A DNA stretch of 61,051 nt, filler included, from Hausera hauseri (taxonomy: Eukaryota), in the NCBI GenBank assembly GCA_046269625.1. It is 12 parts of 12 records of this genome, joined end to end, with 100 filler letters (N's around TTAATTAATTAA, not from the genome) between each part and the next. Parts side by side here need not be neighbours in the genome. Positions count along the whole stretch, not along the records: positions 10,560 to 15,121 come from JBJURY010526679.1; 11 more parts are not named here. One strand, given 5' to 3'. Below the pieces are notes generated by a model that was not told the origin of the DNA, did not search any database, and saw nothing but the letters and a program-made list of their open reading frames with translations. Positions 1 through 51,705 of the stretch are shown here, piece after piece. The translations under genes and the position numbers were made by a program. Within the stretch, counting starts at the first letter, position 1. Every line of letters starts with the position of its first letter.

Positions 1-3000
1 TTAAGTTCCTTCATGTTACGCAACTTGCATTTTTCACATTTCTCTATATAGCTGTGTACGTCTTTAAATAAGTTTGGCCAATAGTAGTTCTCCCTTATAG
101 CATCATATGTTTTGCTTGTTGCCATGTGTCCGTTTTCATCATGGTACTGTTCCAACACTATTCCTTTCAAATGCATAGGAACATATTTCTGGAGTTTCTC
201 TGGTTCTGTTGGGGCTATTCTATAGATCTCCCCATTATTGAGGACGTAGTTTTTCGCCTTCTGCTGCTCGTTCTCGTCTTTGGAATGTAGCCAATTAATT
301 ATGCTTCTTATTTTCTCGTCTTTTTGCTGTTCTTCTTTCATATTTATCGTATCATCATTTATGCTCTCATCTTTGTTTCCCCTTGGATCCTCGTGGGCTT
401 CTTCGTCCACCCTGTATAAGTTGGGTCTATTTGAATTTATTATATTTATCTGAAAGGTTCTGTCATCTATGTCTGTGTTGTCCTCCTCTTGGTCAGAGTC
501 AGTGTCTGGGTATGGGATTCTTGACAACAAGTCTGCACAAGTATTTTCCCTACCCGCAATATGTTCTATGCATGAGATGTATCCCTGGAGGTTAAGAACC
601 CATGTTTGGATTCTGCGGTTATGAATTTCAGATTTCAGAAAACCCTCAAGACCTTTACAGTCACAACGTACGACTAGGTCTGCATTATGTACATAGAAAT
701 TCAGCTTTTGTACTGCATAATGTATAGCAAATGCCTCCTTTTCTATTATTGACCATTTCTGTTGTGTTTTGCTGAGCTTGTGTGATAAGAAGTAAATCGG
801 TTTCTCATTCTTAGTACCTGGTAATACTCCTTCATCTCCATCTTCTGCTGGCTGAACGAGTACAGCGCCAATGGCCATGTCCGATGCATCAGTGTATAAT
901 ATTAATTTCTTGTCTGGATCAGGGTGTGCCAGCAAAGGCACCACTGTCAAACTATCTTTAAGATATTGGAATGCCTTCTGGCATTCTTCTGTCCACTTAA
1001 ACCTGGCGTATTTCCTTGTCAGGGCTATCATTGGTTCAGCGATATTGGAAAAATTGGGAATAAATCGACGGTAATAGCCACACATTCCGATAAATCCCCT
1101 AACCTCCCTAACACTCCTTGGGGATGGCATCTCCTTGATGGCCTTTACTTTGTCCTCGTCTGGTTTTATGCCATTCCTGTTTATAACAAATCCCAAGTAC
1201 TTAGTCTCCTGTTTCAGAAATGCGCACTTAGAAAGCTTTAGTTTTATAGAATGTTCTCGTAGACGTTCAAATACTTTCTCGACATGATGCAGGTGGTCCT
1301 CGATTGATCCCGTTGTATGTATTAGTATATCATCAATATATGCTTGTGCATATTGGTGCATACCCTCTAAGACTTGGTTCATTAAGCTCATATATGTTGC
1401 TGGTGAGCCTTTGAGACCAAAGGGCATGACATTCCAGGTAAAATTTCCCACGTGTGTACTAAATGCGGTTTTGCGCTTGGCCTCCTTGGAGAGTGGGATG
1501 CACCAGAAACCACTTTTTGCATCTAAAGTTGAGAACCACTGAGAGTTCCTCAAGGTGCTAATGGTATGTTCGACTGTCGGCATAGCACACGAAATAGGCT
1601 GGGTTATGGCGTTCAGTTTTCGATAGTCCACACAAAAGCGATGAGTCTGGTCACGCTTGGTAACGATAACAACCGGAAAGGACCATTCTGATCTCGCTCT
1701 TTCAATGATTCCGGCCTGCAACATTTCCTCTATAGCCTTTTCCACTATTTCCCTGTTTTTTAGTGGTGTCACATAAGGTTTCACACTGATCGGAGGATGG
1801 TTTCCGGTGTCAATATCCATTGTAACTGTATTAGTTCGCCCTAGTTCCATGTCATTAAGTGCAAAGACATCAGCATGCTTTCTAACGAACCCCTCCAAAA
1901 TCTCCCCGTTCTGGTCCTCAGGTTTAAGCTGCTGCAGTAATTCGGTTATTCTTTTCTCCCATTCTTCTTCCGTGGTCCTCGGGTCTGTAACACGATCCTT
2001 GTGGTATATACCTTGTGCTGCCTGGCTTGAGCTACCTTCCGTATTCGTCTCCCTCCTGCAATAGTTAGTTGCACTTCCGTTTCTGTTTCTCCTGTTAAAG
2101 TCCATCCCTGTATATAACTGACCTCTATTTCCTTGCGAAATAGAATTTACCTTGTAATGCCCAATGTTATGTGCCTTGTGATGTTTTGATCGAGTTCTCG
2201 CCATCCTTCCTCCCTTTTCAGAAGATAAAGTTTCTTCCTGTTCGAAATCGCTATTTATTTTATTAACTCTTCCAATTACACATCCTCTCCTTATCTTTAT
2301 GGTTTTATTTGCAGTATTCATTATCATTACGGGGACCGTGTGCATATTTCTTAGCTCGGCTAGTCCATCTGGCACAATGAGTCCGGGTTCTTCCATAATG
2401 CTTCTGTCCCCTAATTCAGTAATCCTGATAGTTTGTCCGATTGTAATGTACGGACATTTCTTTAGTACTCCCTGAATAACATTGACACTGTTGGGCTTGA
2501 ATATCACTGTCTTGCTAGCCCGTAGTAGGGAAGCAACGTGAGTATCATCTTCTAAGTCTATAGATTCCCCTTTTATCTCTAACTTTCTTGAACTGAAGTC
2601 TAATTTGACTTCATTTCTTATCAAAAAATCTCGCCCGAGTATCATGCTCCGCTGCATATTTTTCACAATAAAGAAGCTGTGCTCTAGATCGTGGTTCCCT
2701 AATTTAAATCTCAACTTCACTGCTCCTTTTACAACGAGTGGTTCTCCAGATACTGACTGTAGGTGGGCTTTTTTATTCATGAATTTTCCATACCGCTTAA
2801 TGGAAGTATAAATTCGATAGTCCAAGAGACTTGTGCCAGCTCCACTATCCACTAAACACCTGAATCTCTTATTTGCAACTCTTACTGTACAAGAACTAGG
2901 ATCTTTTGCTAAGTTAACATTATAGTTTGGTCTTCTACCTCTGAATCTTTCTTTGTCTGTTTTTGGCCCTTGGGGTCTCCGTACCATACCCCCACTCATG

Positions 3001-3035
3001 TCGACCCCATTTAACGAGTGGTTGTGTCGTTTCCC
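1..3035 (-). CDS. pol: Pol polyprotein (aspartic protease, RT, RNase H, start of integrase); runs off the window, so absent from the ORF track
   Basis: Motifs all in one frame: CLVDSGAGTSLL (~2850), AYIDDILI (~1335), LYTDASD (~890), ADLLSR (~525), YHDENGH...CEKC HHCC finger (~145-25). I did not check every codon between them. Confidence 0.9.
2971..3035 (-). promoter_or_regulatory. -1 programmed ribosomal frameshift signal (slippery heptamer plus H-type pseudoknot)
   Basis: G GGA AAC in the gag frame at 3035-3029, a 7-nt spacer, stem1 CCACUCGU/AUGAGUGG and stem2 UGGGGUC/GACCCCA. pol is in the -1 frame relative to gag. Confidence 0.85.
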
Positions 3036-4141
3036 TGACAGTTACTTAATCTCCCGTTCACATTTCTATGTTGTGGTCCCCTGACCACTCTGGACTCCCC
3101 ATGCGCGTTATGGGCCAGTCGGGCTCGACAATCTGATATGGTGTGGCCTGATTCGTTACACCAGTGGCATGTCCTCCTATTTGCTGTTTCAGCTCTGTTG
3201 CGGGGACACATCCGCGCAAAATGCCTTCTATCCCCACATATATAACATGTCTGTTGCTCCCCTGACCTCCTAGACTCAACTGCACTGACCGGTCTGCCCT
3301 GCATTGGTCCCCTGTTATTATAATCTCTGTGTCTTAATTCTCCTCGTCTTTCCCCTTCAAGACTTTCTTGCCTTGTATCCACTAAATTGAAGCTACGAAG
3401 CAGGTTTTCTTCCTCTATGGCTGATTGTATAGCATGGTCTAATCGGATATGATTTTCCCGCATAAGTTTTAGTTTCATCTGCTCGCTGTAAAGGCCATCT
3501 ATAAAAATCCCTAATATTAACCTATTGACTTCCTCTCCCTCTATGTTCTGCCCCACGAATGCTTCTCCTACCAGGTTATACAGCCTAGAAGAATAATATT
3601 GCACTGTTTCATTTCTTTCCTGTTTTATTTTTCGAAGCATTGAGTAAGCAACACGTGGGTCGGTTATCTCAGCGTAACGATTGGCAAGATCTCTTTTAAA
3701 CTCGTCCCATGAATCATTTGGATGGGTTTCGAGCCTTCTCCTGATATGATCTGAAACAACTCCGGTACTCATCAAGTAAGTTATCCTCTTTTTCTCCGCA
3801 CTTCCAGCCCCTGTCATAAAAGCATATTTTTCGATTTGTGAAATAAAGCTACTATAGTCCTTTGGGTTCCCTCCAAATGGGCTAACCATTGTTCGGATGT
3901 TGCTTTGTCTACTGGCTTCATCCACTTTCAACATCATCTCGCCCAGCATTTTTATAGCTGTTGCAAGCTCGGCGGCAGTGTCTACATTTTGCAAAGGTGG
4001 GGTTTGAGGTGGGTTTACAATACTGTTTTCTAATTTATTTTCATTTATGGTTAACTGGGTCTCTTGCCCCTGCATCTCTGCTTCTCGCTCTTGTGTATGC
4101 CTCTGACGCCTCTTGCTTCTTCCCATGTTTTCCCCACACAA
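3011..4141 (-). CDS. gag: Gag (capsid domain and two CCHC zinc knuckles)
   Basis: 376-aa ORF with an MHR-like KIKQERNETVQYY motif and knuckles CYICGDRRHFARMC and CHWCNESGHTISDC, directly upstream of pol. Confidence 0.92.
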   Translation of the reverse strand: MCGENMGRSKRRQRHTQEREAEMQGQETQLTINENKLENSIVNPPQTPPLQNVDTAAELATAIKMLGEMMLKVDEASRQSNIRTMVSPFGGNPKDYSSFISQIEKYAFMTGAGSAEKKRITYLMSTGVVSDHIRRRLETHPNDSWDEFKRDLANRYAEITDPRVAYSMLRKIKQERNETVQYYSSRLYNLVGEAFVGQNIEGEEVNRLILGIFIDGLYSEQMKLKLMRENHIRLDHAIQSAIEEENLLRSFNLVDTRQESLEGERRGELRHRDYNNRGPMQGRPVSAVESRRSGEQQTCYICGDRRHFARMCPRNRAETANRRTCHWCNESGHTISDCRARLAHNAHGESRVVRGPQHRNVNGRLSNCQGNDTTTR

Positions 4142-4589
4142 TAATCTTGCTCAGTTTGTTATTGTTAATAAGCTGATACATGTACCATGGTTGACTTGGC
4201 AATCAGCCGTTCCGCACACATGCCTCTACCTGCGTTCTATTGTTCTGTTTGCTAACCCCGGAACAGCAAGCTCGTCTCATAAAATGTTAAGCTACCCTAA
4301 ATAAATCCCCTTTCAGCTTGAAGAGTAACAACTGAAAATGACACTAAAATTAAGCCAGTGACTAACCTGATATTAAATAAGAGTATACATACATGACGTA
4401 AAATTTAAGGTTAGAATTATTACTGAATTCACTACAACAAATCACTAAATATGTTATTTAACTAAAACTAATTAAGGTCTTACATATGGCGTCCCGTCCG
4501 TCCCGGTTTCTTGGTTGTGGAGACTTCTCGGTGCAGTTAGAACATACATGTAGAAAAACGTCAGCATTCACAGCACATTTGATTGTTAA

Positions 4590-5342: not shown

Positions 5343-5347
5343 TTTTA

Positions 5348-6743
5348 TCATACGGACCGATGGCGGTTTTCATTTCTCTTAGTTCCCATTCTGAGTTTTA
5401 GGACGATTAGAATGACAATTTTGGCGACTAACCGAAAAATCGCAATTAATATAATGAGAACAAACTTTGATAGTACAACAATTGATACGATCGGTAAAGT
5501 GGTTAATCTCATTGGTGCTTGTGTGGTGACTGGAGTTGTGATTTCATTGTCTATGTTTTCGTATATATGCGATTCTGCGCAAATTTCATCTAAGGTACAC
5601 AATGTAACTGTTTGATTTTGTTTATCCTGTGCATATATTTGTATTATGTAATCGGATTGTGGTTTTAACAAATTACATTCTGTCTGGTAAGTGTTTTTAA
5701 ATAATGTTACAATTTGATTATTATACGTTGTTCGGCAGCTTATGTGTATATCGTAATTTAGCTTCGCTTTTACAGAGAACAAAATTCTAGATCGATGTGC
5801 TGAATATTTAATAGGTATACTCTCTAATTCTATTTTAGGCACACCGCTTGATGTAACGTTTTCCGTAATGGCACTAACTCGAGTGGTCCTGCTTCTGGTT
5901 GTTATCTCCATTGGAATCTTCCATATTCTATTTTCTGGGTAATAAGTTTGCAAACGTATGCTCGGTTTATTTGGTCGTACTTGATATAAGTCAAATCTTA
6001 TTTTGAATTCTTGGTTTACTGGTAGTTTACAACACGGGTGTTGCACATTAGCATGAACAGAACAGTATTCTATTTTCGGGATTTGCCCGTTTACTGCTTC
6101 GAAAACGATACTAATTTCTTGACTAAAAGTTAATCCGGTTCTAGCATTTATTTGAATATATAGTTTTTCCTGGTTTACTGAAATCATTTTGATATTTTCA
6201 TCTAATAGCCCTATATTTGGATCGGTGGATTGTAACATTTCGTCGAATTTTATTTTGAATCGTCTGGCCCAAGTGTGGATAACTAACTGAAGTTATGGGT
6301 TTACTTCGATATAGACTTCCGATGTGTCTGGTAAGTATAGTCTTTAAGTAAGAATGCAGATACGTTCATAACTTATGTCGCAGCACTGTGTATAATCTCC
6401 AGGTTCCAAATAACAGTTTTTTTACTTCTTTTGATGTTACATCGTATAGTACAACTTGAAATTTTCCGAGATCGTGATGAGGTCTCTAAGTTTTAAATCC
6501 AACACGCATAGAGTCAGGTGAAAAATAATGAACCTTTATTGATCGTAACAGAATAGTGTCTTCTCGTTTTTGAATTTCTCCGGCCGTTGGTTTATTTTCT
6601 GTTATAATGTTTTTTGGCTTTAATCCACTTTTCCGAATTCCATATACGTCTCTTAGCGTAGTTTCATCATCCCACCATTGAGTTTGTGCTTTTGGGATAT
6701 ACGAAGAAGCAATTAAGGATAGTGCTAAAAGTATCTGAACGTA
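5348..6743 (-). pseudogene. Type I membrane protein with fibronectin type III-like domain(s), in frame with the integrase tail
   Basis: Hydrophobic signal-like YVQILLALSLIASS, FN3 strand-F motif LLKPQSDYIIQIYA, Thr-rich stalk, TM segment LPIVSIVVLSKFVLIILIAIF and a basic tail. Disrupted between 6490 and 6240. Confidence 0.6.
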
Positions 6744-6779
6744 TGAGGTCGGTCTAGCAATTATTGAAGTTTTTGTCTC

Positions 6780-7900
6780 ACGTTGTCGTAAATTGTAACG
6801 TTTATTGGGTCGTATATCTGTCTTAACGACTCTCTGTACTGATACGACCTCTTCCTTTCCATTCTTGTTGATGTATACCGTGGTTGGGGTAATTTTAGTA
6901 ACTTCGTTCGGTTCTCTGCCTGTACGAGTCAGTTTCAAAGATGTACCTTTCTTAGCTACTGGGTAATGTACATAAACCCAATTTCCTGGTTCTAAATCGT
7001 TTGGTTTTACTTTCTTATCACATTGTCTTTAAATTGCTCTTGATATTCCCGAGACAATTCTTTGGCGATTTCCCAGCACTTCTGCAAAATTCTGTTCTAT
7101 ATCTTCGGGATTGAGCGTGTATGACGTCATTCCTAAATCTGTGTGTAACACAGCTTCACGTTTATGCATCATGAAGAATGGTGTAAATCCTGTCGCTGGA
7201 TGTGGTGTTGTACTAATGGCAAATTGAGTTCCTTCTAAAAATTCGTCCCAATCTTTGTGGTCCTTGGCTACTACTGTGGATAATATGTGTATGACAGTTG
7301 CATTCATTCGCCCAATCATTCCGTTACATTGAGGATGGTATGCGGTGGTAGTTAACCGCTCAATCTCAAATATTTTACTAATTTTCTCAAACAGTTCGCT
7401 AGTAAAATTTCTTCCTCGATCTGTCAGTATTTGATCCGAGGGCCAATATCGACAAATAATTCTTCTCACTACAGCTTCTTCAAAAGTTTCTGCTCTTTGA
7501 TCGGTTATCGCTACTAATTTGACAAAGTGAGTTAGTCGATAGATACGAGTCAAGATATATTTATTATTTTCGTGAGTCGTAGGTAGCGGGTCTACAACAT
7601 CCATTGATATGGCTTGCATATGTCTGTCTGGTACGGCAATTGGTTTTAGCTTTGTCATGTACTTTTTCGTCTTTTTCTGTTTAGTTTCTCATACTTCGCA
7701 AGTATTTACCCAATTATTCACATCAATATAGATACTGGGCCAAAAGTATTCATTCAATATTCTTTCCAACGTCTTTTTCCATTACATGTGCCCTGCTAAA
7801 TATGAATCATGTTCTGCCATTAAAACTTCGATGCGTAAGCCTTTTTGGATGACTATTAATTTCCTTCCTTTTCTTTCATAATACAAAATGTCTTCGTGGT
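6780..7900 (-). pseudogene. Integrase (HHCC finger, DDE core, C-terminal SH3-like domain)
   Basis: HDSYLAGH...YFWP, ISMDVVDPLP, ILTDRGRNFTS, TTAYHPQCNGMIGR, TGFTPF and an RYNLR tail. Confidence 0.9.
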
Positions 7901-8013
7901 CTTTATCGTTCAAGACACAATATTTGTGTCCATGTCTGTGCAAATGTTTCCTAAGCTGTCGTCCTTTCGATACTATATCGTTTTTAGAAAATTCTATAAT
8001 CTGCTGGATAGCT

Positions 8014-8707
8014 TTATCCCTTTTCTTTGTCCAGCGTCAAAAGGCGTTGACGGTCTATTAATTCTTTGAGCTGAGCTTTCTTCATTATCGTAGTTGCACT
8101 TATCTTAGTTTTTAGTCTCGACAATGCATCAGCATCTACGTGTTTGTTTCCACGATTATACTGAAATTCGATATTATATCTAGAAATTTCTTCAATCCGT
8201 GTGTTAAGCCTGCAGGTGGGATTGTTTGCTCGTACCTTCAACGTTGTGACGGTTTTATGATCAGTAACAATTATACGCATAACGTTGAAGTGTCAAAGTG
8301 TTTTTTTACGGCCAGAGTTTCCAATTCGGTAACGGAATAATTTTTCTCGGCCTTTCTAAGGATCGTCCTCCATAAGCTATTGGATGTTCCAACTCTTCAT
8401 CCTCTCGTTTCTGAGCTAATTCGTATCCAATACCTTCTTTACTGGCATCTGCCTTAATTATAAATGGTAAATTGAAGTCTGGCTAGAGTAAAACTGGTTC
8501 GCTTGTTAAAATCTTCATTTCGTCGAAAGCCTTTTGTTCGACGTCCGTCCATTTCCATTTAATTCTTTTCTTAAGTTGACGATATAAAAGTGCATTTATT
8601 TTCGAATTATCTGGCACATAGGTGGTGTAATATCCACTTAAACTTAGCCAATATTTTAACTCTTTCTGATTTTGTGGCTCCATGCAATCTGATATTTTCT
8701 TCAACAA
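8014..8707 (-). pseudogene. RT thumb/connection and RNase H
   Basis: WKWTDVEQKAF, EPVL, ADASK, YSVTELE, IIVTDHK, HVDADALSR; broken by stops and frameshifts. Confidence 0.88.
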
Positions 8708-8728
8708 CGGTTTGTCTGCTTTTGATCC

Positions 8729-9460
8729 TCATTCGCCAACTATATGGCCAAGGTAGGATACTGCATTCTGAGCCCTTTTACATTTCTTTGGGTTCAATTT
8801 TAATCCTTCTTGTTTTAATCTCATCATTGTACGTTCAATATCTTTTAAGTGTTTCTCTTCTGTCTTCGACGCTATCATTACATCATCTAAGTATGCAAAG
8901 GCGTGGTTTTGTCCCATTAACATTTTATTCATCATTCTTGTAAAAATAGCTGATCCAGTGGTAATACCAAACGGCATGCCCTTACATTCATAAACACCAT
9001 CGTGTGTTTTAAACGCGGTTTTATAGCGGTCTTCATCCTTAATTTCCACTTGCCAATATCCGGATTGTAAGTCCAGAGTAGTAAACCATTTTGCTCCTGA
9101 AACTCTATTTAAAGCTTCTTTTACTGATGATAATGGGAACGAATATTTCATCATAATGTTATTTAGTGCCCTGTAATCAATACAAAATCGATGTTTTGTA
9201 GTATCTTTCTTTTTAACCATAAGTATTGACGAGTACCACGATCTATAGCTGGGCGGAATTATATCGGCTTTAAGCATCCGTTCAATTTCTTTTGTTATCT
9301 CGGGTCTTAATGAATGTGTCGGAGGATACCATTTCGGCATCACTTGATCTTCAAGATCTATCTCTTCATTTGAACCAGACTTTTTCTTAAGTGGCATAGT
9401 CAATTTTAATGCTTTTGCTCTACCTATATCTTCGTCACCTTTAGTGATAATTGACTTAAA
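8729..9460 (-). pseudogene. Reverse transcriptase (Ty3/gypsy)
   Basis: RFCIDYRALN, LDLQSGYWQV, KTAF, MPFG, AYLDDV, YLGH. Confidence 0.95.
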
Positions 9461-10210
9461 GACACAATAATTTATAGAGTCGGCAGTGAGATTCAGGTGA
9501 AAACTTAGTTTCAACGTGAGGTGAAAATGCCGCATACTTGTAAGGTTTTTCTTCAATAGTTATAGACGACACTCTATACATATTCCCTAAAGTAGTATAA
9601 GAGTGTAACTTGACAGGCGTCGGTGCATTATTTGCTATACTGATCGGCATACGCCCTGAATGAACTCTTGTCAATATATTAGTGAGTATCATATTCGAAT
9701 TCAACGTTTCCTTTGGTTCAAAATATACTGGTTGGTCATCATCTTGTTGGATTTGGGAGTAGATTATCACTTCTGCTCTCGGTGGAATGTTTTCGTCTAC
9801 TGGGATCCACACTTTTCCAAATTTTCTATCTGTAGCGGTTTTTATGCCTTCATTTGGCCTAATCTCTATTAGTTTTCGTGTTTTCAAGTCGATTGCTACA
9901 TTTGGTAGTCTTTTCAGTAAGTCGCAGCTTAAAACTACATCGTCAGTTAATTGTTCCATAACTGCAAATTCGTGACGGAAAAATTGTCCAAATATCTGAA
10001 CATCTGGGTTCCATTTGAACATCGGTTTCGACACTTGGCCAAAAGCTCCTGTGCTTCCTGGATCCTTTGTAGATGGTGGATATAACTGTCCTCTTACCGT
10101 TTGAGGTATTGAATCATTTTTGACGTATGACATCTCAAACCTATGTTGATTAAGGCGTAAATTTCCCAATCTTCAATAGTAATTTTCAATAGGGTCTCCC
10201 TTCTATTTCT
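9456..10210 (-). pseudogene. Retropepsin and pre-RT spacer domain (catalytic DTG mutated to NIG)
   Basis: YALINIG aligns with YALIDTG of C3; DVVLSCDLL is the flap-end motif. Confidence 0.8.
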
Positions 10211-10559
10211 GTTCCAAAACAATTTAGTGCAGGTTTCGGGCGTTTAGTCACCGATATTTTTGACCATTCATTTTGATTTCCTGAGACTACACTATGTTTT
10301 CCAACAGTTGTCTTAGTTCCCCATTTGGATATAATTCATTGTTTTCGATGTTCGATTCTTCCGTTTCACGAGTACTAATTAAAGGCTCTCGGTTGTTAGT
10401 ATGCGGCTTTGCATTTTGAAAAGTTTGTGATCTCTGATTTCCCCATACAGGTGGACCAGNNNNNNNNNNNNNNNNNNNNNNNNNNNNNNNNNNNNNNNNN
10501 NNNTTAATTAATTAANNNNNNNNNNNNNNNNNNNNNNNNNNNNNNNNNNNNNNNNNNNN

Positions 10560-11545
10560 CATTGGAGCCAGGTTTCTTTTTTAGTGGAATGGTTAGTCTT
10601 AAGGTTTTCGCTCTACCTATGTCTTCTTCATTTTGGGCGATAATCGACTTATATTTGCATAGTAGTTCGTAAAATTGACAATATGCTTCTGGTGAAAATT
10701 TAGTTTCAACATAAGGTGGAAACTCGGAATATTTGTACGGCTTTTCTGCGATCGTTATTGCTGATACCTTATAAGTATAACCTAACGTAGTATTGGCATA
10801 TAATTTTACAGGAGTTGGTGCGTTATTCACTAATCTGACTGGTACCCTTCCTGTCGTTACTCTCGTCAAAATGTTACTAAATATGATATTTGGATTTACG
10901 TCTTCTTGTGGTTAAAAATATACTGGTTGGTCACCTTCTTCGCGGATTTGGGCATAAATTAACATTTCGGTTGTAGGCGGAATATTTTCCTCTACAGGGA
11001 TCCATACTTCTTGCTTCCTTTCTTTCATTGTTTTAATACCTTTCACTGGGTAATTGTTTCAGTATGTCGTAACCTAACACTACGTCATCGGTTAGCTGGT
11101 CCATTACGGCGACGTTGTGTCTAAGAATTTGACCCATTAAATGGACTAAAGGGCTCCATTTAAATTTCGGTTTGGATTCTTGCCCGAAGGCTCCTATGTT
11201 GCCTGGATCTGATGATGATGCTGGCTGCAGTTGTTTTCGAAGTGTCGGCGGTATCGATTCTGATTTGATAAACGATTTCTCTGATCCGGTGTCTATTAAG
11301 GCATAGACTTCCCAATCTCCAATGGTAACTTTCGTGAAGGGTCTCCCTTCCATAACCGCTCCATAACAACTTGACATGTCCTTTGGTCGTTTAATTGAAG
11401 AAATTTTATATCCGTTTATCGTTATTTCTGGTGATGAAATGATGTTCTCGGTCAACTGCTTCAGTTCTTCTTTAGGATATAAGTCGTTGATTGTTATGTT
11501 ATCTGCATTGTTTCTAATTAATGGTTTTTGTACTATCGGATTTTA
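10560..11545 (-). pseudogene. Retropepsin and pre-RT spacer domain of a second copy of the large gypsy family
   Basis: VYALIDTGSEKSFI...DVVLGYDIL. PVRLVNNAPTPVKLYANTTLG and EEDIGRAKTLRLTIPLKKK match C2. Confidence 0.88.
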
Positions 11546-11926
11546 GAACAATTTCACTCCTTGTGTTCCCCAGACTGTTGATCTGGTCTCTATATTGCGA
11601 GCTATTCTCCGTGAGTACAATATCCGATGATCATCTTCTGCTCGTCTCTGATTAGTGATCTGCATTTTCTTTAATAATCCGTATTGTTTTGTTCCTTGAT
11701 AAGGATCTTCATAGCTAAAAGGTTTCTGACAGAATGTCAATCTATAAGACACCATAGATGTTTTGTCGAATTCTTCGTATATTGGGGCCGTTGGCGGAAT
11801 GATGGGCAAAGGTGCCTTGATTACTAAATACATTTTGTGTCTATTTGGTCCAAGGATTACTTCTCCTCCCTTAGGCTCATCATCATCTGAATTATTTCTT
11901 CGCGTCATTGGTTTCTTACCTTTACG

Positions 11927-11935
11927 TTTTAGTCA
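11927..11935 (-). promoter_or_regulatory. Candidate stop-codon readthrough site (UGA CUA) between the glycoprotein tail and pol
   Basis: Minus strand reads ATA TTT TGA CTA AAA; ORFs on both sides share one frame. Confidence 0.45.
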
Positions 11936-13810
11936 AAATATGGGTCTTGCTCGTCGTTTGTAATTATAATAGCCGACATGGCGTTCAACGTCATTTTTCC
12001 ATCGATTTTCTTCATAAGCTTTAAGCATTTTGCCGAATGGGGTGATCATTGCGGTTAAAATCTTGCAAGAAAATCCTGTTAAGGTGAATATTTCGTACCA
12101 ATTTATAATTGCTTGGATTACCGCCTTTACTAGTTGTATTAAGAAATAGATTGCTAAAAATCCAGATGCAGCTTGTCCAAAATTTAAAAATCTTCCCCAT
12201 ATTTTGTAGAGTATTTCTGTGGTTATCCGTTGGTAACGGTTCGTACCAAGTAAGGATTCCCATTTAGCCTGGTAGCGGGTATCAACTACTACTGATGCCA
12301 TAGCTCGGTTTAATTCGTGTGTTCGTTGCCGTGGAAAAGCGAGAAATTGTCGAAAATCTTCGATCTCTTTTGGTCTGTAAATGCCTTTTTGAGATGTATC
12401 CTGGAACTTGACGTCGGTAATTCATTTTGCTAAATTAGTTCCAGTTAGTTTTTTAGGGATAATAGCGACACCTCCATTCGGTAAGCTAACCCAATCTGTT
12501 TCGCTACGTCTGAACATTGGTTCCCCAAACTTGCCTTACAATCCTTCAAAATGGTTAGTTGTGTCGCATTATCGAGCAACACTCTAGTGAGAGGCATGGC
12601 TAGACGTGGAGTATTCTGGTAGATTACAGGAAGCTCTGGTATGCATCGTTTTTCTTCAACGTTAATTGGTACATCTCTTTTCTCGCATTCATATGTCAGT
12701 AAAACGTCGCCAGTAACCCGACCAAAATTTCCTTCTCTCATGAGAATAATCGGTGAGGCTAACTCCGGATTCGCATAAACAAGAGCTAATTTTGTTCTCA
12801 TAATTTGCGTATCTAACTTGTAGTCATTAACTATCATTTTGTAGTACAGTTCGGCTATTCCGACTTGTCCTTTATAATAAAAATAATCGTCTCGGTTTTT
12901 CAGATAGTCTTCGATTCGAAAGTCTTGCGTTTCTAAATTGTATGTTATCGCGTTTATCTCCGTTTCTGCGACGAAAAACGCTTCGTAGTTAGTGGTAAAC
13001 ATTACTACTTCGCAGCGTGAAATCAATTCCTTTTTTATGAATTTCAGTCCATGTTGATCAGAGATTAATATCGTAGGTGCATCATGCTCTGATACGTCTT
13101 CACGTGCTCTTGAACTGATGTCGGATTTATCTACGTATCGTTTCCCAGTAGTTTCATTGAATTTCAGTTCTTTAATCTTAATAAAAGTACAGGCTTTTCC
13201 GGCGGGCGGTCCCCATATGATGACAAAAATTCTGAAAGCGCAAGTTCCGTCTTGCATGTGACATTTTTGATTCTCAGTATAGAACTTAGTGACGCTATGG
13301 AACATTACTTTTTGAACTCGCATTTCTGATTCGTAAAAGTCTACTACCACTACGTTTGCCTTCAGCCCTTTTCCGGTATCGTATTCCGTTCCACTACAGT
13401 GCCCGTTATGCATATGCTCTGATTATTTTTCCGGGCTGCATTTCTAATTCCATGCTATCCCATTTCAGTATTCCGGTTTCTCGGGCTTTTTTGCAATGTT
13501 GTCTTTCCAAATTCATTGGAATTGAAGGGGTTGTTGGTTTAATTATCGAGGAGTGTCCGTGCATTAACCCACAATGAAAAATACTACGAGATCGTCTCAG
13601 CATACATTCCATGCCATCCAAAGATATAAACTCTTGTTGTTGGTATAGAAAATAGTTCTACTCCTTAGTTTCCAATTTATGTGGTCTGGCATCTTCACAT
13701 GCTTCTAAGTAAATTAATGAGTATTTTTGGCCCAGCTTAAATCTATCGCAATCGTAGACAGTGACAGCACCCATCTGTTTTATTAACATCATTATGGTGG
13801 GCAAACTGAT
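11933..13810 (-). pseudogene. env: Chuvirus-like (class III fusion) envelope glycoprotein
   Basis: Cysteine and motif pattern of chuvirus G: xxYDC, SLxxLEAC, C...IFHCG.HGHSS, GHCSGTEY, GRVTGDVLLTYEC, CIPELPV, PLTRVL, GIY...FLAFP, then C-terminal hydrophobic segments. One internal stop and frameshifts. Confidence 0.8.
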
Positions 13811-15121
13811 TAACCAATTAGATTCATTCTTCCGGTTGATGTTATCCGTTGTCGTCAAGTTCCGTATGATGTCTCCGAGCCCATTATTATTGTTCCTTTT
13901 GTCTTCTTCTTTGTGAAACAATTTTAGCCAATTTACTTCAAACGGAAGTTTTCTAGACGCTTTTCGTGCCAAACTCGTAGCTCGATTTAGTTCATTTTCT
14001 CGATTTGGATTTGTCTTAATTTCCAAGTACAATAATATTTTTCTCAGCTCTTCTATCGTATTTCCCACCATGATCTTCTCGACTATTGCGTCGTCAGTTA
14101 GGCTACTTTTTGACAGTTTGAAACGCAAACTTTTCATTGTTTTAGCTGCGTTAAATATTGCCTTTTCTTTGTCATTTAATGTATCTCCGCGGAGACTTGA
14201 ATAATTTACAATACGTATTAAATTCTTTATTAACTCGCTTAATTCCTCGTTATCCGCTTTAAAAGTGGAAATCGACATCTGTCTTAACTCTCTAATCAGT
14301 TCTCCGTTATAGTCGATTTCTTCTCGAGGCTTCCTTGGCCTGCGACTGGACGTTTTGGTCTTGGAACATTAGTTGGTATTCCACTTAGTGGTACTAGATT
14401 CTTGTCGTATTGTTCTTTGTCTTCATCCGTCTGTAAATACTCGAAATGCATCGCCGAATCTCGTACTGCCATGATTTGTCCTACGCATTGTTCCGTTTTA
14501 GCATTCCGCGGGCTTCTTTTGTCTGTTCGTTGGCTATTATTACTACTATCCGATTTGTTTCGCCGGGGATGATTCCGACGTCTATTAACTGTTCTAGATC
14601 ATCGAGTATTCTTCCTCTAAAGTAAAATCTATAATTTAGCTCATTTGTTCAGCCATTGTTCAGTAATCATTCTCTTACGTCCTTTACATAGGAATGTGTA
14701 GCTAATTAACATTCTTTTTCTTACATCCATTCGGATAATATCATTATCTTTATCACTAACTCAGGTTTATCTTTTAAGATTTTCGCATACTTCTTTATTA
14801 AAAGTTTCGGCACTGTGTTGTAAATTATGTTTTCACTGGATAATTTAGTTAAGGTTGGAATGAGTTGCCTGAGCTTATTTTCAGTCATGTTTACATTATT
14901 TGATTCCATCAAGTCCCTTTCAGTTAACTCTGAGTCTAGGAGCATCTCCACATTGAATTTCCTGTTCTGCGGATACATTTGTATTTCATCTAAGTGTACT
15001 GGAGTTACCGGATTTTCGGCCGTTATTTCTTCTAAATAAGCATTCCATTCTGGTTCATTCCCAATATCTGGGAGTCCGTAATCTACAAGAGCTATGTTCG
15101 TTCTTTTCACATTTTCTCGAA
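13811..15121 (-). pseudogene. Degenerate copy of the large pre-env ORF (ubiquitin-like domain, AT-hook remnant)
   Basis: Collinear with 40080-41370 (LRQLIPTLTKLSSEN, YRFYFRGRILDDLEQLIDVGIIP). ORF 13658-14278 reads continuously into the glycoprotein signal sequence. Confidence 0.85.
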
Positions 15122-31185: not shown

Positions 31186-33657
31186 GTAGCAAAGTTAGAA
31201 CTATACAAGATAAAATAAAAGAAAAAGAAGCGCAAAAAGAAAAGTGTGTGTTAATTGATCTTAGTGGGTACAAGGCGTTGAATACCTTCTACTGATTTTT
31301 CCCTACCTTATTTGCTGAATGTGACTCTGCGTGTTGTGCATTTATGCAATGTGTCTGTTTGCAGAGCTTGAGGTTGGGGAAAAAATTGTTAGATTTTAGT
31401 GTAGGTGTTATGTCGTGCGAAGATGAAGAGGAAGGTAAAGAAAGGGAAATAGAAGGTGAAGAAGATGAAGAAGGTGAAGAAGATGAAAAAGGTGAAGAAG
31501 GTAAAGGAGGAAGAGTGGGTGTGGTAGACGGAGGGTTAATGATATTGAGAATAGTAGTAGAAGACGAAGGAGTGATGACAGGTATAGTGGTGGATAAAGG
31601 AAGAACAGAAAAGGTTGGAGGAGAGACTGGAGTTGTGTCGAGTAAAGGAGTTGAAGAGGAATATGATATCGAAGGAGTGGAAGAGATAGGAAGGTTGGTA
31701 GGAATAGAAGCAGGAAGTGTAAGAAATGATGAAGCAAGACTAGGCGCGGAAGAGGAAAGTGGAAATTGTATAGTAATAGATGTAGGGATAGTAGTGAGTG
31801 GAGGAGTAAGGAAAGAAACTGGTGTATAAGGTGGTAAAGTGTCGTTGACAAAGAAAGCTGGATTCAGGTTGGTGATGTGTACAGTGAAGTCTTTACCGTC
31901 TTTAGAGATGATGACGTTATGCGAGTGGAGCTGTAAAAGTTTATAGGGCCGCAGACACCGTGGCTGGAAACCGCAAGGGGCCTGATTTTTCAGCCAAACA
32001 AATTTAGCCGTGTATAGATCTTCAGGTAGGTATGTTTTATTATTATGAAGTATTCTGCAAAACGAGTCTTTGCTGACTTAGACGAAGTGATGTTGCGCCG
32101 CCCGTATCGTCTCATCTGTGAGAGTGTCGTCTAGGGCAGTTAATTCGAATAATAAACGGACAGGAGCTCCAAATAATGCCTCAGTGGGTGTGCATCCTGT
32201 AGAAGTGGACGGGGTGTTCCGCCAGCCAAGCAGAACGAACGGAAGAAGATTGGTCCAACTACTGTTGGACTCTGCAAGAATTCTTAACGACGTTTTCAGT
32301 GTGAAGTGGAAGCGTTCTAGGAGGCCATTCGATTGGGAATGATAAGGCATTGTGTAAATATGGCGAATTCCCAATCGGTTAACAAGGGATTTGAACAGGT
32401 TGGATTCAAATTGTGGACCTTGGTCCGTGATTATGAAGCGAGGTGATCCAAACGTGCTAATCCATGTGCGAATGAAAACGTCGGCTATGGTGTCGGTGTT
32501 AGTGCTCCGCAGAGGGATGGCTTCTGGCCATCGCGAGGAACGGTCCATCATGGTGAGAATGAATTGATGTCTGTTGTCTGGAGGAAGAGGGCCAACGATG
32601 TCGATATGCACGGATTCGAAACGCGATGTGCAGGGAAAGTGGAGTAGTGGTGACTTTAATTGCTTAGCTGTTTTTTATTTTTGGCAAGCCGTACACTCCT
32701 TAACCCATGCCTGCACATCAGAACGCATTGACGGTCAAATTACTTATCGATGGAATAGACGAAAAGTGGCTTTAGCACCAGGGTGGTGTGGTGAATGCAC
32801 GCTGTAAAATACTTGCCTTTGCAATGATGGTGCTAGGAGTATTACGGAATGGCCTGGTTTAGAAGTGTCTAAAGCCACGCCGTCAACGATTATGCAAAAC
32901 TTAAAAGAATTAAGCATGTTCTGAGGTGGCTGGTTCTGTTGAAGTTGAGCTTGCTTAAAAATCGGTGAAAAATTAATAGAATTAACCAATTTAGATAAAA
33001 AATCAGCAACTAAATTGTTAACCCCGTTAATATGTTTAAGATCGAAGTTAAATGTCAATAAGTATGATATTTGTCGTTCTTGGCGTGTGGAAGGGTGATT
33101 TATAGCCATGATGTTAAGTAAGGGCTTGTGATCGGTTTGTATAGTAAAATGACGAGCGACAAGTAGGTGTGAGAAGTGTTTCAAAGCGAGAACGATGGCC
33201 AATAGTTCTCGATCAAACTTGGAATATCTGGTTTTAGGTGCTGTTAGCTTGCGAGAGAAGAATTCTAACGGTTGATTTTCTCCCTTGTAGATCTGGTGGA
33301 GTATAGCGCCTACTGCAGTGGTTGACGCGTCTGTAGTAAGGATGAGTTCTGCATCAGGCTTCGGGAAAGCAAGAATATCGACGGTCTTAATTCCCTCGCG
33401 TAGCTTGTCAAATTTGTCAACCAATTCAGGTGTCTGCTGGATAGGCTGATGTTTTTGCCGCCGCTTAGGTGTGCGAATGGTGCTGTAAATTCGGAGCAAT
33501 ATGATACATATTTATGTACAAAGTGTAGTGTAACAAGGAAACTGCGCATTTCGATGGTTGTACGTGGCAACTGGGTATTTTTAAGAGCTTCGACTTGGTC
33601 TGATTGGGGAGATTGTCCGTCTGGTGAAAGTAAGGCGATGTGAGCACACTGCCCCAA
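31186..33657 (-). mobile_element. Ty3/gypsy (CsRN1-like) pol remnant: RT end, RNase H, integrase, Pro/Ser/Thr-rich tail
   Basis: LTTDASTTAVGAIL, FFSRKL, DRELLA, TDHKPL, HIDIVGPLPP, SRWPEAIPL, TDQGPQFES, SNGLLERFH. Confidence 0.9.
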
Positions 33658-34407: not shown

Positions 34408-36332
34408 AACGTAATAAATATCCACCTAATATTTGACAAATTGTGTTTTGCTGATGTTTTGTCGACCAAATAAATATCTATCTAATATTTGACTAATTGT
34501 GTATTGCTGATGTTTTGTCGACCTAATATATATCCGAAGAATATATGACTAATTACGTTTGGATGATGTTTTCTCGACCTAGCACATATCCGCATAATAT
34601 GACTAATAGCGTTTAGGTGCTGTTTTGTCGACCTAAGAAATATGCATCAAATATTTGACTAATTGTGTTTTGTTAATGTTTTTTCCGCATAATAAATATC
34701 CACCTAATATTTGACGAATTGGGTTTTGTTGATGTTTTGTCGACCTAATAAAAACCCACCTAATATTTGACTAACTGTGTTTTGTTGATGTTTTTTCGGC
34801 ATAATAAATATCCATCTAATATTTCACTAATTGTGTTTCGTTGATGTTTTGTCGGCATAATAAATATCCATCTAATATTTGACGAATTGGGTTTTGTTGA
34901 CCTTTTGTCCTTGTAATAAATGTCCGTCAAATATTTGATTAATTGTATTTATTTGGTGCTTTGTCGATTTAATAAAAATCCACCTAATATTTGACTAAAC
35001 GTTTTTTGTTGACGTTTTGTCGAACTAATAAATATCCTTTTAATATTTGACTGCTTATGTCTTTTTGATGTTTTGTCGACCTAATTAATATCAATCTAAT
35101 ATTTGATGAATTGTGTTTTGTTGATGTTTTCTGGACATAATAAATATCCATCTAATATTTGACTGCTTCTGTTTTGTTTATGTTTTGTCGGCAAAATAAA
35201 TACCCATCTAACATTTGACTGATTGTGTTTTATTGATCACTTGTCCACCTAAGAAATATCCATCTAATATTTGACTATTTGTGCTTTGTTGATGTTTTGT
35301 CAACCTAATAAATATCGGTCTAACTTACGACTAACTGCGTTTGGATGATGTTTTGTCGATATAACAAATATGCATCAAATATTTGACTAATTGTGTTTTG
35401 TTGATGTTTTTTCGACCTAATAAATATCCATCTAATATTTGACTAATTGTATTTTGTTGACGTTTTGTCGACCTAATAAAAATCCACCTAATATTTGAAT
35501 AATTGTGTTTTGTTGAAGTTTTGTCCAACTAATATATATCTATCTAATATTTGACTAATTGTGTTTTGCTGATGTTTTGTCGACATTATAGATATCAATC
35601 TAATATTTGACGAATGGGGTTTTGTTGATCTTTTGTCGACCTAATAAATATCCGTGTAATATTTGACTAATTGAGGTATGTTGATGCTTTGTCGACCTAA
35701 TAAAAATCCACCTAATATTTGATTAATTGTGTTTTGTTGATGTTTTGTCGACTTGATAAATATCAATCTAATATTTGACGAATTGCGCTTTGTTGATGTT
35801 TTGTCGACCTAATAAATATCCGTCTCATATTGGCTAATTGTGTTTTGTTGATGTTTTGTCAATTTAATAAATATCCACTTAATATTTGACTAATTGTGCT
35901 TTGTTGATGTTTTCTGGACCTAATAAATATCCATCTAATAATTGACTGCTTCTGTTTCGTTTATGTTTTGTCGGCAAAATAAATACCCATCTAACATTTG
36001 ACTGATTGTGTTTTATTGATCGTTTGTCCACCTAATAAATATCCATCTAATATTTGACTATTTGTGCTTTGCTGATGTTTTGTCAACCTAATAAATATCG
36101 GCCTAATATACGACTAACTGCGTTTGGATGATGTTTTTTCTATCTAACAAATATACATCAAATATTTGACTAATTGTATTTTGTTGATGTTTTGTCGACC
36201 TAATAAAAATCCCCTTAATATTTGACTAATTGTGTTTTGTTGATGTTTTGTCCAACTAATAAATATCCACCTAATATTTGACTAATTGTGTTCCGATGAT
36301 GTTTTGTCGACCTAATAAATATCCACCTAATA
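34408..36332. repeat. 56-bp tandem satellite, about 34 copies
   Basis: Consensus GACCTAATAAATATCCATCTAATATTTGACTAATTGTGTTTTGTTGATGTTTTGTC; e.g. units start at 35414 and 35470. Confidence 0.95.
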
Positions 36333-37966
36333 CAGTGCTTAACATAATTATAACCGCTTTGAATATTTTGCGATTTTTCGGTTAGCTAAGAGTGAAACTT
36401 TAAATCACTATGATAGTTTGTAGGAGTCGATGATGCGACGTAATGCAATGCATTCTCTTTCTCCCATTCCCATTTTTTCCATACCTGAGTGACTTTTGAT
36501 CGATTTTGGTCAATTTTACACATAACATAATTATAACCGCTTCTCATAATAACACTGAATCACGATTTTATTTTGAATTTCAATAGGAGTTAAGGCCACC
36601 ATTGTGGCTAATGACTTCAAAAATGCGATTAGGCATGGAATTAACTAAATTGGAAAGAGTCTGTACACTTATTTCACTCCATGCATGAAGAATTGCTGCT
36701 TTCAACTCAGCGACTGTGTGATACTGGCGATTATGGTCATAAACCCGACGGACTAAGATTCCCCACAGGTTCTCTATGGGGTTGCAGTCTGGCGAACAAG
36801 CTGGCCAGTCCAACACGGCAATATTTTTCTCCAAGAGCCAAGCTTTGGTGCTTCTACTGCAATGGACGCTGGCATTGTCTTGTTGGAAAATCATCCCCCG
36901 TCGTCGATAATGTCGAATAAATGGAAGGAGGCTTTCTTGGAGTACGCGCTGATATTCGGCACTATCCATTTTGGACGAAGGAAAGGACAATGGAAGTGTT
37001 CCTTCCTTGCAAAAGGCTCCCCATACCATCACACTGCCGCCACCAAAATTCCTGCGAGAAAAAAACTGAGGTTCCTTACGCAGGTCACGCCAATACCCAT
37101 TCACCCGATCGGGACCGTCCAAGTTGAATTTTTTTTCGTCGCTGAATATCACCTAGCAAGATAAAAATATGAGAGGACTGCATGAATTAGCGTGAAAGCC
37201 TGAAAATCATGAAAAAATTTACTTTAGCCCAATCGCGACCCATGTTGACTCGACAGAAATCAAGTCTGGCTGCTTTATGGTGATCCTTAAGACAAGGAGC
37301 AGGTTTCATCTTTGATCTGATGATGTTTGGATTGCGTTTAAGTGTTCTCCAGATGGTCATATGAGAGACATCCAGATTCAGCTCCTTTTTAAGTTCTAAA
37401 CAACCCTTGGACGTGTTTGAGGCAGCATCAACTACTCGCCGCTGAGCACGCAATGAGAGCTTCCTCTTTCGCCCGGTATGTTTTTTCACACAATACTGCT
37501 GAGGATTTCTCAAATAGTTGCGCACAACTCGATCTGATCTGGAAATTCGTCTGGCTATCTCTTTTTTGGACAAGTTTTCCATACGCAATGCCATGATTTG
37601 CCCTTTTTCATACTGAGACAATTGTTTACCACGTGGCATGACGGCTGGTACTAAAAATATAGAAGAAATATACTAAATCTACACTAAAATAGCATGTAAA
37701 AAGTAATTACCTGAGTAAAAAAGGTATAAACAAGCGAAATGGAATATCAAAGCAACCGCGGTTATAATTTTGTTACGCTAAAACAACAAGTGTTTTTACA
37801 ATATATTAAAATATTTTTTAATAAGAAAAAATATTTTCATACACAACATTACAAATTTATTCATCCTTATAATAGATGATAATAAGAAAAAGATTTCATG
37901 AATTACCTTATTTGGCACATAGATTTTTTATAAAATCAAAAGCGGTTATAATTATGTTAAGCACTG
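36333..37966 (-). mobile_element. Complete Tc3-like (DD34E) DNA transposon, 1634 bp
   Basis: 28-bp perfect TIR CAGTGCTTAACATAATTATAACCGCTTT, TA on both sides, and inner copies of the binding motif at ~36523 and ~37759. Confidence 0.96.
36580..37639 (-). CDS. Tc3-like transposase, 329 aa, two exons (37639-37223 and 37152-36580)
   Basis: MPRG start; a 70-nt GT-AG phase-0 intron joins DWAK|VIFSDEKKFNLDGPD; QQDNA...SPDCNPIENLW gives DD34E spacing. Confidence 0.93.
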
Positions 37967-39491: not shown

Positions 39492-40080
39492 TGGCATTTC
39501 TGATTCTCAGTGTATAATTTCGTGACACTATGAAACATTACTTTTTGCGATCGCATTTCTGATTCATAAAAATCCACAACCAAAACGTTTAATTCCAATC
39601 CTTTTCCGGTATCGTATTCTGCTCCATTACAATGTCCGCTATGCATATCCAACCTTTCAGCTACTACCTTGCATGCCTTGATTATTTTTCCGGGTTGCAT
39701 TTCCAGTTGCATGCTGTCCCATTGTATCATTCCGGTTTCCTTAGCTTGTTTGCAATGTTGACGCTCTAAGTTCATCGGAATTAAAAGAGTGGTAGGCTTA
39801 ATTATGGAGGAGTGTCCGTGTATCAGTCCACAGTGAAAAATAGTGCGTGACCGTTTTAACATGCACACCATTCCATCTAATGATACCAATTCTTGTTGCT
39901 GATACAGGAAGCAACTTTTCTCTCTTCTTTCTAGTTTGTGCGGTCTAGCATCCTCGTAGGCTTCTAGGTCCATTAAGGAATATCTCTGTCCTAATTTAAA
40001 CTTGTCACAATCATAGACGGTTACCGCACTTACATATTTTATTAACATCATCAATGTAAGTAAGCTAATTAGCCAATTTG
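39492..40080 (-). pseudogene. env: Chuvirus-like glycoprotein, N-terminal part (second copy)
   Basis: VTVYDCDKFKLGQRYSL...IFHCGLIHGHSSII...GHCNGAEYD; collinear with 13260-13810. Confidence 0.82.
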
Positions 40081-40305
40081 ATTCATTTTTCCGACCTCAA
40101 ACGTCTGACATTGTCAGGCTACGTAGCATATCGTCAAGTTTATTGTTGCTTCGTTTGTCTTCCTCTTGTCAAATAGCCTTGCCCAATTCACCTCGCAAGG
40201 CATTCTTCTTCCTGCTTTTCATGCTAAGTTTATTGCCCGATTGATTTTATTTTCTCGGTTGGGATTTATTTTGATGGCTAAGTACACCAAAACTTTTCTC
40301 AATTC

Positions 40306-42999: not shown

Positions 43000-44032
43000 G
43001 GTTTTATATAATTTCTCGGCGTATTGCTGCTCTTTCCCGGATATGTCGACTTGTTCACTAATCTGCTTAATCTTCTGTAAATTTCGCTATAATATTTCGG
43101 GCTCTAAACAATAAATTGTTATTTTCTTTAGTTCGTCGGCGTTTTTCCATGAGCGTCGGATTTTCCACTTTTTTGAATTGAAATCGTCATTGTTGGCCGT
43201 CTCTTCCTCACTAATGGGAAGTGGGCAGATTTCGTTAATTTCATTAACTCACTCTATCGGCTCCGCTACTCCGACAGGTGTGTATAAACCGATTTCTGGT
43301 TTATCCAAATTAATCTCCGTGTCACCTTCTACAACGACAGTTGGGTTTTCCTTCTCTTCAACTTTCTCTCTGGTTATTTTGGAACGTGAACGACTTCTAC
43401 GTTTGGTTTTTAGTGAAGAGCCACGGCCTCTATTTTTCGTAATTTTAAGTATTAACGGTTCCATAAATTCTTTTTCCGCTGTATCATCTTCAGTAAGCTT
43501 AGGTACTTTTTCAACTGCAAACTCAAGCTCTTCGTCTACGTCGACCGCCGTCGATGTGCCTGGTTTATCAGATGGCTTATTGTTTGTCGGAACACTCTTC
43601 TTCCGTGTCATATCACTTCGTTTATGTGCTATTGCGCGTTGGTATTCGGTCTCAGGCTCTGCTAAGCCATGATATACTTCTAGCAACCTCAACTTATCTG
43701 CGTACTCTCTTCTAGGCATCAAAATTTGTAAGTTCGCAGTGGCTGGCTGAGCATCTAAGAATTTTCTTAAATCTTGTATATCGATGATAGTGCCTGTATT
43801 TCCACAAACGCCATACTTTGCTTCTAAGTTCTCGTTAGATCTAATCATACTAGTCTTATTTGGTTCAGTAAATGAAACGCTACGCGGATTCGGGCATGAC
43901 CTCGAAATGTGTCCTTCTTTGCCACACGTAAAACAAACTATATTTCCATTTTTGCCGACTCTCTGTCGACCGTCTTCGTTCACCGGTGACTTAGATCTAT
44001 TTATACTTTTACTATACTGATTTGACGAACTT
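43000..44032 (-). pseudogene. gag: Gag nucleocapsid region (CCHC zinc knuckle) and downstream linker
   Basis: CFTCGKEGHISRSC; the frame continues into the 897-aa ORF across two isolated stops. Confidence 0.75.
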
Positions 44033-50298: not shown

Positions 50299-51543
50299 TT
50301 ACTGAGGAAAAGGCTGAAAGAGTGTCTTGCCAGAAGAGGTTTTGTATCCTATCCCATCCGGTATATAGGTTTCGCCATCTAACGTAATTGCTTCATCGAT
50401 TTCGATCTGTCTTTTTCGTAACGATGTAAGAGATGATCTTTTAAGGAGTTTGTCGGCAGGAGTGTTCTCGTTTATTATTTCGTCCTTCCATTGTAAACTG
50501 TTATAGATCACTTGATAACATTGTACTAATGCTGTACTACGCAACGGCATGGCACGCATTTCTTAAAATCGCTTGGCAAGTTCTTTATAGGTAGACGAAG
50601 TTAATTTATATTTTTGGATCACGTTTTCGTGATAAAGAAGATCACGAATTCCTAAGATTCGCCTAAGTGGGACTTTGAGATGTTTGGTTAGCATCTCATA
50701 AAGTGTAGCTCCCACTATTAACTTATCGTTTAATATTTCGGCTATTTTTTGATAAAATATATTTGCATCCATCTGACCGATAGTGTTGGTTTCGAATAGA
50801 CCTGTTATATGTGAATCGTAATTATTGATACGTTGTCTTGGTGTAATAATGGCATAAAATAAAGAATCACCTCGGAGGTTGATGACTGAGCACTCAATGG
50901 GTGTAAATTGATTAAATTTATCATAGGCTAAGTTGACTGCATCAACGACAATTTCGTTGGCATTTATAGACGGTATTCGGCGGTATGGGATGGTGGCATA
51001 TTTGAGATAATCGGGCTCCGCCAGATTAAACGTTCTTCCATGGACCGATGTGGTCCAAAAAGATTCTGCTTTGATAACTTCTATTGCCAGCATAATTCTG
51101 TTAGTTAAGGATCTGATCTTGGTTAAGTTATTTTTCATGAATTTGAATTCCAGTGATATTGCGTTATTTGGATCCAAATTGATCAAGTCACCTTGTTGTT
51201 GTATTTTCTTTTCTTTTGTTTTGAATTGGAACTTTCCAATTATATCGTAAACATTTAAACTATGGTATTTATCTGGTAATGTAATTATGTCCGATATCAA
51301 GAACGAAGTGGCCTGTGTCATTTGTATCAATGCGAGAGATCGGTTGCTTTGAGAGTAGCCCTTGAGGTTGTTCGGAATTTGTTGGACCAGTGCATAGTTA
51401 AGGCTGTATGTATTCTCGTTTAATATCACATAACACGGATTGGTGGCATTTGCATTCATTAGATGATTTTTTGCATTTACAAACCAGTTCTTGCTTCTTT
51501 GGAGAGTTTGAATTGACATGATGTCTATAAAAGAGAAAGTCAA
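50299..51543 (-). pseudogene. ORF with a C-terminal DEDDh (REX4/ISG20-like) exonuclease-fold domain, catalytic residues degenerate; one in-frame stop
   Basis: IVVDAV...CSVINLRGDSLFYAIITPRQRINNYDSHITGL...KIAEILNDKLIVGATL...IRD follows the REX4-family pattern. Confidence 0.65.
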
Positions 51544-51705
51544 TAGAATATCGATATCACTTAATCATATCATAACAGTTATCAACGTATCTGCGGTAAC
51601 CGGTATGCTTTTGTTTATATTTAGCCAAAATTGTAGGGTAACTATGACATATTTAGTTATCATTAATTTCCGGATTACTTGTATCGTAATCCGGTTACAC
51701 CATCG

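Follow-up and report, generated by a model that had tools for sequence, protein, structure and literature searches.

A stop codon in a seemingly leaky context lies between the envelope part and the enzymes of a decayed retrotransposon copy in the genome of the animal Hausera hauseri. The earlier note on this DNA had read this codon, a UGA followed by CUA, as a readthrough site behind which Pol is made. We favor another origin, with a probability of roughly 0.65: the TGA would be a nonsense mutation acquired after insertion, and the working element a GAG-ENV-POL Ty3/gypsy retrotransposon with one continuous membrane polyprotein. The window (the whole stretch of DNA analyzed, 61,051 nucleotides) is made up of 12 contigs, each 4-8 kb long, with N44-TTAATTAATTAA-N44 spacers between them. 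The studied element is encoded by the minus strand of contig S3 (10560-15121); contigs S2, S9 and S12 carry sister copies.

Judged by its domain matches, the element is of Ty3/gypsy type, decayed, with the order Gag-X-Env-Pol and a chuvirus-like glycoprotein. This chuvirus-like, gB-type glycoprotein precedes Pol: two pieces matching PF24664 (Monjiviricetes_fusion) above the cut-off are located 5' of the protease, all on the minus strand. The C-terminal piece (11936-12421, E 2.9e-23) includes the predicted membrane anchor at about 12104-12160 (hydropathy peak at residue 88) and the start of the cytoplasmic tail, and the middle piece of the ectodomain (12448-13422, E 5.2e-18) served as our Env query. 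The N-terminal piece (13415-13875) was recognized by tblastn to relatives and to S9; it has an internal signal-like segment, whose S9 counterpart is a hydrophobic peak. Further 5' lies the end of a large X region (13876-15121, 74% nucleotide identity to S9). On the enzyme side, a retroviral-type aspartyl protease (11051-11350; PF00077, RVP, E 2.1e-06) with its DTG at 11293 is followed by a protease-to-RT spacer (10560-11049, 66% nucleotide identity to S2) that ends at the contig edge.

Sister contigs supply the remainder. S2 (5343-10459, minus strand) contains the end of the linker, protease, RT (RVT_1 E 7.6e-37), RNase H, integrase (rve E 7e-10) and a post-integrase membrane-protein region, so that the Pol order protease-RT-RNase H-integrase is pieced together from S3 and S2 (66% identity in the overlap) rather than read from a single contig. 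In a quick tree of nine rows, built without named references, the S2 RT falls beside P0004 (support 86) on a long branch. S9 (39492-44032, minus strand) represents the Gag side with a CCHC knuckle (zf-CCHC E 1.2e-06), the large X region and the Env N-terminus, the capsid region being beyond the contig end. S12 (60447-61051, plus strand) is a fragment of the Env middle (PF24664 E 1.5e-18).

Two further regions of these sisters were noted. From the CCHC knuckle to the Env signal, S9 encodes about 1200 residues (40309-44031, minus strand) that look helical by eye, with a possible ubiquitin-like stretch; no Pfam family scored above the cut-off there, and no match was found among the relatives. In S2, the frame past integrase (5351-7028, minus strand) enters a signal-like segment, a beta-rich region and a strong C-terminal membrane helix. 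Atlas leads for this tail point toward FN3-like receptors with scores under 0.9, and its predicted fold, at a low-confidence pLDDT of 46, had no PDB match at E 0.001. Similar post-integrase extensions occur in relatives; those of P0137 and P0138 match Ig domains of Pfam. The region is possibly a second surface protein on the polyprotein.

The motif itself is present as described: on the minus strand the glycoprotein tail reads RPIF, then TGA (11935-11933), CTA (11932-11930) and AAA. The context UGA CUA A has the type-II readthrough hexamer (UGA then CUA or CGG), and UGA CUA is indeed a documented leaky context, listed for Sindbis virus, PSIV and human genes in the available sections of the sources (PMC13517186, PMC4359377). 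The frame also carries on toward the protease, as had been stated. It is stop-free from 11932 to 11546, where the other two frames have 10 and 13 stops, and thus open for 129 codons before one later private stop (TAA at 11545-11543), with the protease in frame. What does not hold is that the codon sits exactly at the structural/enzymatic boundary: the Pfam protease match begins at 11350, 194 codons past the TGA, and the distance to the catalytic DTG amounts to 214 codons. The interval is a linker or remaining Env cytoplasmic tail in the Env frame (11351-11932), the TGA lies between the Env anchor and the protease, and a basic stretch straddles its position. A Pfam scan of 11546-11932 gave no matches, and a candidate second, out-of-frame protease inside the linker was dropped, its matches appearing only at E above 1.

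The S3 copy is dead. Along a coding path set by homology, to which these counts refer, it has nine in-frame stops and five frameshifts over 1521 codons. Besides the TGA-CTA, Env is broken by TGA at 12424, TAG at 13660 and two frameshifts; the end of the X region has four stops and two frameshifts, and the spacer past the protease has a frameshift near 11047 and TAA at 10914. Local alignment pairs seven of the nine with sense codons in a sister. The eighth, TAA 11545, had been called sense in the sister copy; a long alignment does place an S2 sense codon there, near the edge of that alignment, and a short-window alignment missed the site. The TGA-CTA is the sole S3 stop outside sister coverage, since S9 ends at the equivalent of 13259, S12 at that of 12417 (about 480 nt 5' of the junction) and S2 starts near 11585 (about 350 nt 3' of it). 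If stops fall in the anchor-to-protease linker as often as these other eight do along the copy, it would hold one or more with P = 0.69. Decay can also place stops at apparent boundaries, as is seen in S9, where a TGA at 40099 directly before the Env signal is sense in S3.

A second copy of the junction was not found in the rest of the window. No close copy was present among 246 candidates of 285-2000 aa or 198 of 30-254 aa in the protein set, and none was confirmed among 168 and 56 pattern matches in bacterial/archaeal genome contigs. A search of the Atlas with Env returned no usable matches.

For more distant relatives, the Env middle piece was the query of a full HMMER scan (135 hits), to which a profile search added two, 137 in total, with a best identity to the query of 33%. 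In 13 of them glycoprotein and protease follow each other within one protein (12 by Pfam, P0009 by its DTG motif), and seven of these extend into RT. None of these 13 clade members has a stop before the protease; at no more than 33% identity they are distant, and they are predicted proteins compared at the protein level (sources for two of the 13), into which spliced models or TAG recoding could enter. The two with sources of JGI type, P0137 (2974 aa) and P0138 (2774 aa), are on contigs of 12,025 and 10,405 nt, sizes that would fit unspliced ORF calls. Seven of the 13 fused linkers lack Trp, so annotation of TGA as Trp is not masking a stop in those. Hydrophobic segments flanking the ectodomain, and again past integrase, recur among relatives. 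Two or three aspartyl-protease motifs follow Env in six of the 13 fused proteins (P0002, P0005, P0008, P0011, P0012 and P0015); the window copy has one.

A quick Env tree, made from 70 of the 137 hits (67 were omitted as too short or low-scoring, P0026 among them), places the window inside a set with 98% SH-aLRT support that comprises the 13 fused proteins, six truncated ones and two window rows, and 49 glycoproteins ending after the tail fall outside it. The window lineage is on a branch of 1.8 substitutions. Because of this branch length and the low identity, the relatives constrain the window lineage weakly. The ends of 34 in-family partial proteins (32% identity or more to one of the fused proteins) are scattered from -245 to +106 relative to the anchor Trp, with no clustering at the TGA (+88). 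Individually, in-family P0026 extends 18 residues past the TGA position and ends without a protease, and P0003 and P0021 end 20-27 residues short of it.

The linker also contains late-domain-like motifs, PTAP 47 codons past the TGA (11783-11794) and LYPxxxL about 152 codons past it (11462-11482), the latter found in sister S2 too. In HIV-1 p6, according to the available part of PMC2651531, PTAP recruits Tsg101 and LYPXnL recruits Alix. The pattern YPx1-3[LIV] occurs in 10 of the 13 fused linkers, where shuffles give an expectation of 1.9, and in 10 of 23 stand-alone glycoprotein tails (1.4 expected), and this excess in both groups makes it look like a trait of Env tails. In the fused forms, the YP motif may instead be a protease cleavage site. 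If PTAP and LYPxxxL act as late domains, the stop would shorten the structural part and not mark its end.

Together, the dead state of S3, the sense codons in sisters at the other eight stops and the 13 continuous relatives favor decay. Under this preferred reading, the Gag-X portion of the intact polyprotein would stay in the cytosol, the internal signal segment would direct the glycoprotein ectodomain into the ER, and the anchor helix would bring the chain back to the cytosol. The tail with its PTAP and LYPxnL-like motifs would then lead directly to protease-RT-RNase H-integrase, Pol presumably being freed by the element's own protease, and the CTA after the TGA would be a coincidence. Two proposals of the earlier note can be seen in this light. 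The architecture stands, with Gag-X-Env followed by Pol in frame and Pol predicted to be cytosolic behind the Env anchor; the readthrough joined to it comes down to the hexamer. The tethering of Pol to the membrane through Env also survives as the probable default of the family, since Env runs into the protease as one protein in relatives, and readthrough is unnecessary for it.

The rival with most in its favor is programmed type-II readthrough in this lineage, which we hold to be a possible but unlikely explanation. Translation would mostly terminate behind a short Env tail, while a few percent of the ribosomes would decode UGA CUA and make Gag-X-Env-tail-Pol, lowering Pol and the chains bearing late motifs relative to Gag-Env. 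The strongest evidence for it is that decay seldom gives this hexamer. The probability of an in-frame TGA-CTA arising by decay is 0.005-0.007 within the linker, 0.03-0.05 anywhere in the S3 copy and 0.07-0.11 across the decayed contigs S2, S3 and S9, and among the 19 in-frame stops of these three contigs the TGA-CTA is the only TGA-C. These figures, the distance of the relatives and the nearby ends of P0026, P0003 and P0021 count against decay. The site is also the one stop that no sister marks as private, and the frame is open beyond it. The available sections of PMC13517186 add that UGA CUA A matches the context listed for Sindbis virus, that the hexamer is active without structure in PSIV and that the alphavirus site varies between stop and sense, so that open relatives are no bar. 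We estimate the resulting likelihood ratio at roughly 20-40, assuming that 15-20% of readthrough lineages show an intact hexamer.

Across the window the hexamer is not enriched: TGACTA occurs 40 times against 31.2 +/- 5.5 expected, and eight of 100 shuffles were equally high. Many of the matches come from a 56-bp tandem array of 34 copies at 34412-37672. ORFs adjoin this array; from their motifs we take them to resemble Tc1/mariner transposase. A CpG-driven excess of TGA was ruled out (CpG o/e 1.16, no depletion).

Against readthrough stand the single dead copy, the absence of a stop before the protease in all 13 relatives that reach it, the scattered ends of the partial proteins and the loss of PTAP and LYPxxxL from what would be the abundant product. 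RNA structure gave no signal either. Folding of the 150 nt past the TGA, a check proposed in the earlier note, yielded z +0.25; windows of 60-250 nt lay between z -0.3 and +0.2, and an 80-nt sliding window ranged from z -0.9 to +1.0. These values come from one decayed sequence and a long-range stem could escape them, structure being common at readthrough sites and not obligatory. An Rfam scan that admitted E values up to 5 gave no match. Right before the Env anchor, at 12188 and 12185 (minus strand), a pair of slippery-type heptamers overlap in phase, and P0019, P0022 and P0049 end within five residues of this site. Slippery-type heptamers number 18 on the three coding paths, which indicates that recoding-like motifs are frequent in the AT-rich DNA of the window.

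Taking a prior of 3-7% for a programmed stop and the above likelihood ratio, discounted for the position of the tail motifs and the missing structure, our own estimate leads to the probability for decay given at the outset and leaves readthrough as the doubtful second reading, separate expression of Pol as improbable and a sequence error as the least probable. Readthrough is thus less likely than decay, and the element belongs to the already described GAG-ENV-POL class. If decay is correct, S3 is an ordinary dead copy of that class, in which Pol is probably made membrane-bound within a single polyprotein whose Env tail bears late-domain-like motifs. A programmed stop would mean Env-to-Pol readthrough, and with it an answer to the question of how the Gag:Env:Pol ratio is set in GAG-ENV-POL elements. 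In that less favored case, a divergent GAG-ENV-POL lineage might have split its polyprotein by an alphavirus-type UGA CUA leak inside the Env tail, and only the rare long chains would carry the ESCRT-recruiting-like motifs together with Pol, coupling budding to Pol incorporation. Among publications considered at the level of titles, none describes Env-to-Pol readthrough.

Genuine termination of Env at the TGA, with Pol made apart by re-initiation or from spliced or subgenomic transcripts, is improbable. An in-frame ATG at 11908 lies 24 nt 3' of the TGA, and GAG, ENV and POL are described as three ORFs, with ENV-POL gaps of up to 2000 nt allowed, in the available text of PMC13524379; however, the ATG sits in a weak context (C at -3 and A at +4), agreement with the Env frame would be expected just one time in three, the basic stretch crosses the TGA and the relatives are continuous. 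A sequencing or assembly error would suit a window of 12 short contigs in which frameshifts are common, but it is highly improbable as the stops are substitutions spread across all copies in a decay-like manner.

Several other features were seen in the window. A separate gag-pol gypsy element, apparently intact and with overlapping gag and pol frames, occupies 1-4150 (minus strand); its contig is the only one of six measured that shows CpG depletion (o/e 0.67). By eye, ORFs at 31289-33511 (minus strand) resemble RNase H and integrase left over from a further LTR element. Two ORFs at 50563-52215 (minus strand) have no Pfam match, the second being beta-rich with a strong membrane helix in a layout like that of the S2 tail. 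Elsewhere, host-like matches, to a PLOD GT domain (E 4e-21) and weakly to FERM_N and CFAP54_N, point to an animal.

Known systems resemble the S3 element in different respects. The combination of the UGA CUA hexamer and an in-frame polymerase 3' of it is found at the alphavirus nsP3/nsP4 junction (UGA CUA / UGA CGG), with the hexamer context also at cellular UGA CUA(G) sites, as far as the available sources describe them. Unlike the alphavirus sites, the S3 site is a single sequence in a dead copy without a stem-loop signal, and at +7 it has A, where the strongest cellular sites have G. Nematode endogenous retroviruses (NERV) are said to have been described as a single continuous gag-env-pro-pol ORF. 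By description they share with S3 the flipped ENV-POL order (Sacco et al. 2022, J Gen Virol 103:1739, as reported in the available text of PMC13524379). Ty3/gypsy elements of GAG-ENV-POL order with gB-type ENV are known in Nematoda, Bryozoa and Platyhelminthes (Chary and Hayashi, eLife 2026, PMC13524379, available parts), and these errantiviruses with HSV/gB-type ENV are, by their description, like S3 in gene order, gypsy-type Pol order and gB-type glycoprotein. Unlike them, the S3 copy is decayed, about 900-1200 residues of X lie between knuckle and Env, and sister S2 carries the post-integrase membrane region. The main text of that study, in its available form, does not mention readthrough, frameshift, polyprotein, splicing or a fused or single ORF, and two of its supplements, with coordinates of elements and alignments of parts of ENV, contain no ENV/POL junction. 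Four of the relatives, P0002, P0004, P0137 and P0138 (28-33% identity to the window Env), have no stop in the Env-protease linker and share with S3 and S2 the order Env-protease-RT-RNase H-integrase, with a YP motif ahead of the protease and a hydrophobic segment and an extra domain past integrase.
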